A DNA stretch of 64,000 nucleotides. It comes from Escherichia coli. Lineage in GTDB: Bacteria > Pseudomonadota > Gammaproteobacteria > Enterobacterales > Enterobacteriaceae. The position numbers and the translations under genes are program-made. Under the pieces are notes generated by a model. That model ran no database searches. It was not told the DNA's origin and saw only the letters and a program-made list of their open reading frames with translations. Positions 20,072-20,094 of this stretch are shown in pieces. The stretch lies in assembly GCF_036507355.1 (NCBI RefSeq), contig NZ_AP027877.1; one strand, 5' to 3'. The first letter of the stretch is position 1; each line of letters opens with the position of its first letter.

Positions 20072-20094
20072 ACTTTAGTTACAACATCCTTAAT
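20072..20094 (-). promoter_or_regulatory. Ter site (TerB-like) in the tus promoter
   Basis: Reverse complement reads AATTAAGGATGTTGTAACTAAAGT, containing the conserved Ter core GTTGTAACTA; sits 11 bp upstream of the tus start as TerB does. Confidence 0.85.

Follow-up and report, generated by a model that had tools for sequence, protein, structure and literature searches.

The 64,000 nucleotides of Escherichia coli DNA analysed here, referred to throughout as the window, carry ydgJ, malXY, uidRABC, manA, fumA, fumC, tus, rstB and rstA in that order, followed beyond rstA by pntAB, mlc, ynfEFGH and rspAB and then by Qin-like prophage genes, a synteny that is that of K-12 from ~1.70 to 1.64 Mb read in reverse. 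Two neighbouring genes of this series, both on the minus strand, frame the feature with which we are concerned: tus, an open reading frame of 309 codons plus stop at 19132..20061 that encodes the terminus-site-binding protein Tus, and rstB, an open reading frame at 20137..21438 that the K-12 and O157:H7 annotation identifies as the gene of a sensor kinase. Between them, and likewise on the minus strand, lies a 23-bp Ter site at 20072..20094 (ATTAAGGATGTTGTAACTAAAGT), running from Ter position 1 (20094) to position 23 (20072); the rstB stop precedes Ter position 1 by 42 bp. Of 5426 complete E. coli genomes, 5423 contain the 401-bp segment surrounding the site, in every case annotated rstB / tus, and E. 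coli O157:H7 matches it at 100% identity. For the larger segment 8000..32000 (24 kb) of the window, identity reaches no more than 99.3% in the best-matching complete E. coli genome; either the complete-genome set contains no near relative of the source lineage, or the region is a mosaic.

Ter positions 10-19 are an exact copy of the 10-bp Ter core GTTGTAACTA (20085..20076, minus strand), the single exact copy within the 64-kb window. The tus ATG occupies 20061..20059 on the minus strand and is separated from Ter position 23 by ten bases (20062..20071), which amounts to the 11-bp offset between TerB and the tus ATG that has also been published (PMC8707476, legend to Fig. 1). Location between rstB and tus, placement on the tus strand and a distance of 11 bp upstream from the initiation codon are what mark a site as TerB, and all three are found here. 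The sequence-only reading had put a Ter site at 20072-20094, 11 bp upstream of the tus start, and was correct in both coordinates and spacing; its expression "23-bp Ter core" holds for the length of the site and fails for GTTGTAACTA taken as the whole of it, as this is the 10-bp core inside.

At the other end of the window, just past rspB, two IS3-family transposase open reading frames (rve, HTH_21) stand where related strains have a Qin-type prophage integrase. The IS3/prophage stretch has features at 51471..52289 (minus), 54387..55199 (minus) and 58181..60035 (plus), and downstream of the IS3-family frames there are prophage-remnant genes, DUF968/ydfU-like together with antiterminator Q. Across 44-64 kb of the window the GC content drops to about 0.45-0.48.

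Comparison with the K-12 Ter sites and natural alleles

Read from NC_000913.3, K-12 TerB occupies 1684226-1684248 and has the sequence AATAAGTATGTTGTAACTAAAGT; the tus ATG is at 1684259. When the window was searched with this 23-mer, allowing up to three mismatches, one place only was returned, 20072-20094, with two mismatches, and none of 100 dinucleotide-preserving shuffles contained a match at the same threshold. The two sites share the rstB/tus locus, the orientation relative to tus and the 11-bp offset to the ATG, and they differ at position 2, where A in K-12 is T in the window (20093), and at position 7, where T is G (20088). Both of these positions belong to the part of the Ter sequence that is variable according to Goodall et al. 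2021 (PMC8347550), who assign positions 1-5, 7 and 19-23 to the variable part and positions 6 and 8-18 to the conserved core, and against that conserved set the window site has no mismatch. An alignment to K-12 TerB had been proposed as the check on the initial identification, with a mismatch at a critical position such as C6 to count against it; in that alignment 21 of the 23 positions are identical, among them G6 and positions 8-23, and C6 and the core (6, 8-18) are intact. The C6 of the G·C6 pair lies at 20089 on the plus strand, the Ter strand itself carrying the G. Judged on its sequence and position, the site is a genuine, non-random Ter site and the orthologue of TerB.

The bases found at positions 2 and 7 are also those of K-12 TerC (NC_000913.3 1609157-1609179, ATATAGGATGTTGTAACTAATAT), which resembles the window site in its core, in G6, T2 and G7, and in its trap polarity, as both block the clockwise fork. 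TerC differs in lying at another locus, beside dif, in having no tie to the tus promoter, and in its flanks at positions 3-5 and 21-23; in the order of the K-12 trap it is the innermost site and TerB the second. TerC of K-12, with T2 and G7, is a published site of fork arrest in vivo (PMC8707476, PMC10331603). Tus binding and fork arrest at the T2/G7 allele of TerB would be expected by analogy with K-12 TerB.

How common that allele is was gauged with exact 30-mer searches across the -10 element and the Ter site in 5426 complete E. coli genomes. The K-12 TerB allele, AATAAGT over positions 1-7, is carried by 2345 of them, AATAAGG by 1372, and the allele of the window, ATTAAGG, by 1257, many O157:H7 genomes included; some 450 have another allele or differ in the flanks of the 30-mer. 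Differences among the three main alleles are confined to positions 2 and 7. When eight diverse E. coli strains are aligned, these two positions are also the only ones that vary within the Ter site, and the core is invariant. Outside the Ter site, from the -35 element to the ATG, the aligned strains differ by a C/G polymorphism in the spacer of the promoter, by one base between Ter and ATG in R9, and by the first base of the -35 element in KTa005.

The candidate tus promoter and the Tus protein

Published secondary accounts consistently place TerB within the tus promoter region and state that Tus represses its own synthesis (PMC8707476 and PMC8347550 among them, with reference to Roecklein et al. 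1991 and Natarajan et al. 1991). In the window, a standard sigma-70 scan reported no promoter near Ter. That scan demands T at position 6 of the -10 hexamer, which is why it passed over the candidate that a relaxed scan recovers: a putative -35 element TGGTCA (20117..20122, minus strand) and, after a 17-bp spacer, a putative extended -10 element TGcTATAAA (20094..20102, minus strand; TATAAA at 20099..20094, TG at 20102..20101), with 9 of 12 hexamer positions matched. This -10 element has Ter position 1 as its last base, so that transcription would start about 7 nt downstream, at Ter positions 7-9, and bound Tus would occlude the start. The candidate -10 element is invariant in eight of eight diverse E. 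coli sequences; TGGTCA is found in seven of the eight, KTa005 reading GGGTCA, so that GGTCA is common to all. The hexamers and the start are best regarded as candidates: the match behind them is a relaxed one, and the published statements name no coordinates. A promoter that abuts Ter position 1 fits the published autoregulation of Tus, and the earlier placement of Ter in a Tus-autoregulatory position is supported by the 11-bp offset and these published statements, its overlap with the tus promoter being probable.

Nearer the start codon, a weak Shine-Dalgarno-like sequence, AAGTGGT (20069..20075, minus strand), may serve tus; it overlaps Ter positions 20-23. Upstream, a scan of the interval between the rstB stop and the Ter site (20095..20136) gave no convincing intrinsic terminator, the sole terminator-like match lying inside rstB at 20204..20192 and at chance level; with no convincing terminator between rstB and tus, any read-through from rstAB would presumably meet the Tus-TerB complex on its non-permissive side. 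A rearranged form of this junction is seen in KTa005, a river-water isolate (positions 53..1560 of the locus taken from NZ_CP147084.1), which has ISEcp1 transposase-gene sequence in place of rstB. The ISEcp1-associated junction falls at the candidate tus -35 element, and the candidate promoter, TerB and tus are otherwise unchanged.

The protein encoded immediately downstream is full length. Window Tus aligns end to end, over residues 1-309, with the crystallised K-12 protein (PDB 1ECR/2I06; E = 2.5e-206), and its homologues carry the Pfam domain PF05472 in precomputed annotation. Relative to crystallised K-12 Tus there are three substitutions, I23A, R145C and T158S, and no other damage; O157:H7 Tus has R145 and T158, and so lacks R145C and T158S. 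Among about 15 billion sequences the exact protein (WP_338388348.1) occurs once. I79, F140, H144, G149 and R198 are all intact in it and invariant in 129 aligned homologues. The first four of these we take to form the pocket of Tus that receives C6, a pocket reportedly described by Mulcair et al. in 2006. R198 is a residue of Tus named in PMC8707476.

Orientation of the site and the fork trap

In the published mechanism the G·C6 pair stands at the non-permissive end of the site, DnaB translocating on the lagging-strand template unwinds the DNA toward that face, and the freed C6, on the leading-strand template, docks into Tus (PMC8707476, PMC10331603). Which end blocks can also be derived from the geometry of the K-12 chromosome, where TerA, at 1.34 Mb, is a minus-strand site and TerC and TerB, at 1.61 and 1.68 Mb, are plus-strand sites: no trap results from such an arrangement unless forks are blocked at the position-1 end. 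In the window this end points toward high coordinates, so that a fork moving from right to left would be arrested and one moving from left to right would pass. The sequence-only reading had held that the orientation of the site tells which fork is arrested, as indeed it does, the answer being forks that travel from high to low window coordinates.

The direction in which this region is normally replicated can be read from its composition. The plus strand of the window, with 16370 G vs 15142 C, has a GC skew of +0.039; the skew is above zero to the left and to the right of the Ter site and in 14 of 15 sliding windows, which makes this strand the leading strand of a fork that normally replicates the region from left to right. 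From the skew together with the synteny we infer that this normal fork runs anticlockwise in K-12 terms, toward dif. Strand counts of KOPS (2 vs 0) and Chi (8 vs 5) lie in the expected direction, in numbers too small to carry weight. The plus strand, which bears C6, is the leading-strand template for the right-to-left fork, the one that would be blocked, as the mechanism requires. GC skew, synteny and K-12 geometry thus indicate a trap-consistent TerB, one that would block a clockwise fork that has already gone past TerC.

The arrangement has a counterpart in type I fork traps, for example that of Edwardsiella tarda, in which Ter1 likewise lies just upstream of the tus ATG, in barrier orientation and with presumed autoregulation of tus (Toft et al. 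2021, PMC8707476). Ter1, ~78% identical to TerB (Toft et al. 2021), differs in being the innermost barrier of its trap, whereas in the type II trap of E. coli TerC lies inside TerB. The RTP-Ter system of Bacillus subtilis is analogous to Tus-Ter and not homologous to it. It is likewise a polar protein-DNA fork trap at the terminus, built on a dimeric winged-helix protein unrelated to Tus and on sites of another architecture, and it has no C6 lock.

What the site does and what it means

We consider it very probable that the site is the chromosomal TerB of E. coli, acting both as a polar fork barrier and as the tus operator, and bound by monomeric Tus from the adjacent gene. Its sequence, position and conservation, its orientation as judged by GC skew and K-12 geometry, and the intactness of tus are what the present analysis brings to this reading; what is said of binding by Tus, of the lock, of arrested forks and of autoregulation comes from published work on K-12. 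On this basis the 23-bp asymmetric site would bind, as a monomer, the Tus protein encoded immediately downstream. A clockwise fork that has run past the terminus, moving from high to low coordinates, would meet the position-1 end first; DnaB would then unwind the DNA as far as G·C6, and C6 (plus strand, 20089) would flip into its pocket in Tus and lock the complex. A fork moving from left to right would meet the permissive face at position 23 and displace Tus. Because the final base of the candidate -10 element is where the site begins, and because the site would cover the predicted start, the same bound Tus should shut out RNA polymerase and so keep tus repressed.

Among the alternatives, one deserves to be taken seriously even though we think it unlikely, namely that the site is mainly a tus operator, kept for setting the level of Tus, with a fork-barrier role that is marginal in vivo. 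Toft et al. 2021 (PMC8707476) argue that TerB is probably used only once a fork has passed an unbound TerC and serves merely as a back-up in that event, so that fork arrest at the window site may be infrequent, and in their classification E. coli has a type II trap, in which the Ter site next to tus is not the innermost. The direct contact of Ter with the candidate -10 element is what one would expect of an operator, and Goodall et al. (PMC8347550) note that conservation of terB may in part reflect its promoter location. Against this, the 2D gels of Duggin and Bell, as relayed in PMC10331603 and PMC8707476, place terC and terB among the sites with the most arrested forks in the wild type. The orientation of the window site is moreover that of a trap component, and the operator and barrier roles are not mutually exclusive.

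A quite different proposal, in which the natural alleles of TerB adjust, from lineage to lineage, how fully Tus occupies the site, how stable the lock is or how strongly tus is expressed, with R145C in Tus as a compensatory or modulating change, strikes us as very improbable. The allele counts and the R145C variant would gain interest only if binding or lock kinetics proved to differ between the alleles.

We give equally little credence to a weakened Tus-TerB pair, in which R145C impairs locking or binding, the site is under-occupied and tus is derepressed. Its appeal comes from the rarity of the substitution, since 127 of the 129 aligned homologues have R at residue 145 and the exact protein is a singleton, and from its place in the protein, as codon 145 (window 19629..19627) adjoins that of the invariant H144, presumably part of the C6 pocket. 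The two homologues with C at this residue are, besides the window protein, a single other Tus, that of Citrobacter koseri, and an exchange that has arisen there independently has been tolerated at least twice. The pocket residues and R198 are intact, as noted above, the gene is full length and otherwise undamaged, and a search of the literature on Tus residue 145 gave nothing relevant. As far as the alignment of homologues goes, R145C appears to be a rare variant that gives no reason to doubt function.

That the site is a chance or pseudo-Ter sequence without any Tus-related function is effectively refuted: one-mismatch matches to the 10-bp core do occur in the window at chance frequency (3 observed vs 2.4 expected), but the 23-mer was matched in none of the 100 shuffles, the site is the positional orthologue of K-12 TerB with the same 11-bp offset, its core does not vary among the strains sampled, and the two other core-like matches lack G6. 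Those two, intragenic one-mismatch copies of the core at 27969..27991 (minus) and 44484..44506 (plus), were rejected as Ter sites because G6 is missing and there are further core mismatches, and because their number is that expected by chance.

A TerB site upstream of tus, probable operator and probable barrier alike, is a textbook feature that was already known, and it is met here as a common natural allele. What it does for the window is to mark it as a segment of the E. coli replication terminus and to fix its orientation, with the plus strand as the leading strand heading to dif and the barrier facing forks that would escape the terminus. To the biology of the species it makes small additions, in the counts of TerB alleles over 5426 genomes and in the rare R145C variant of Tus.
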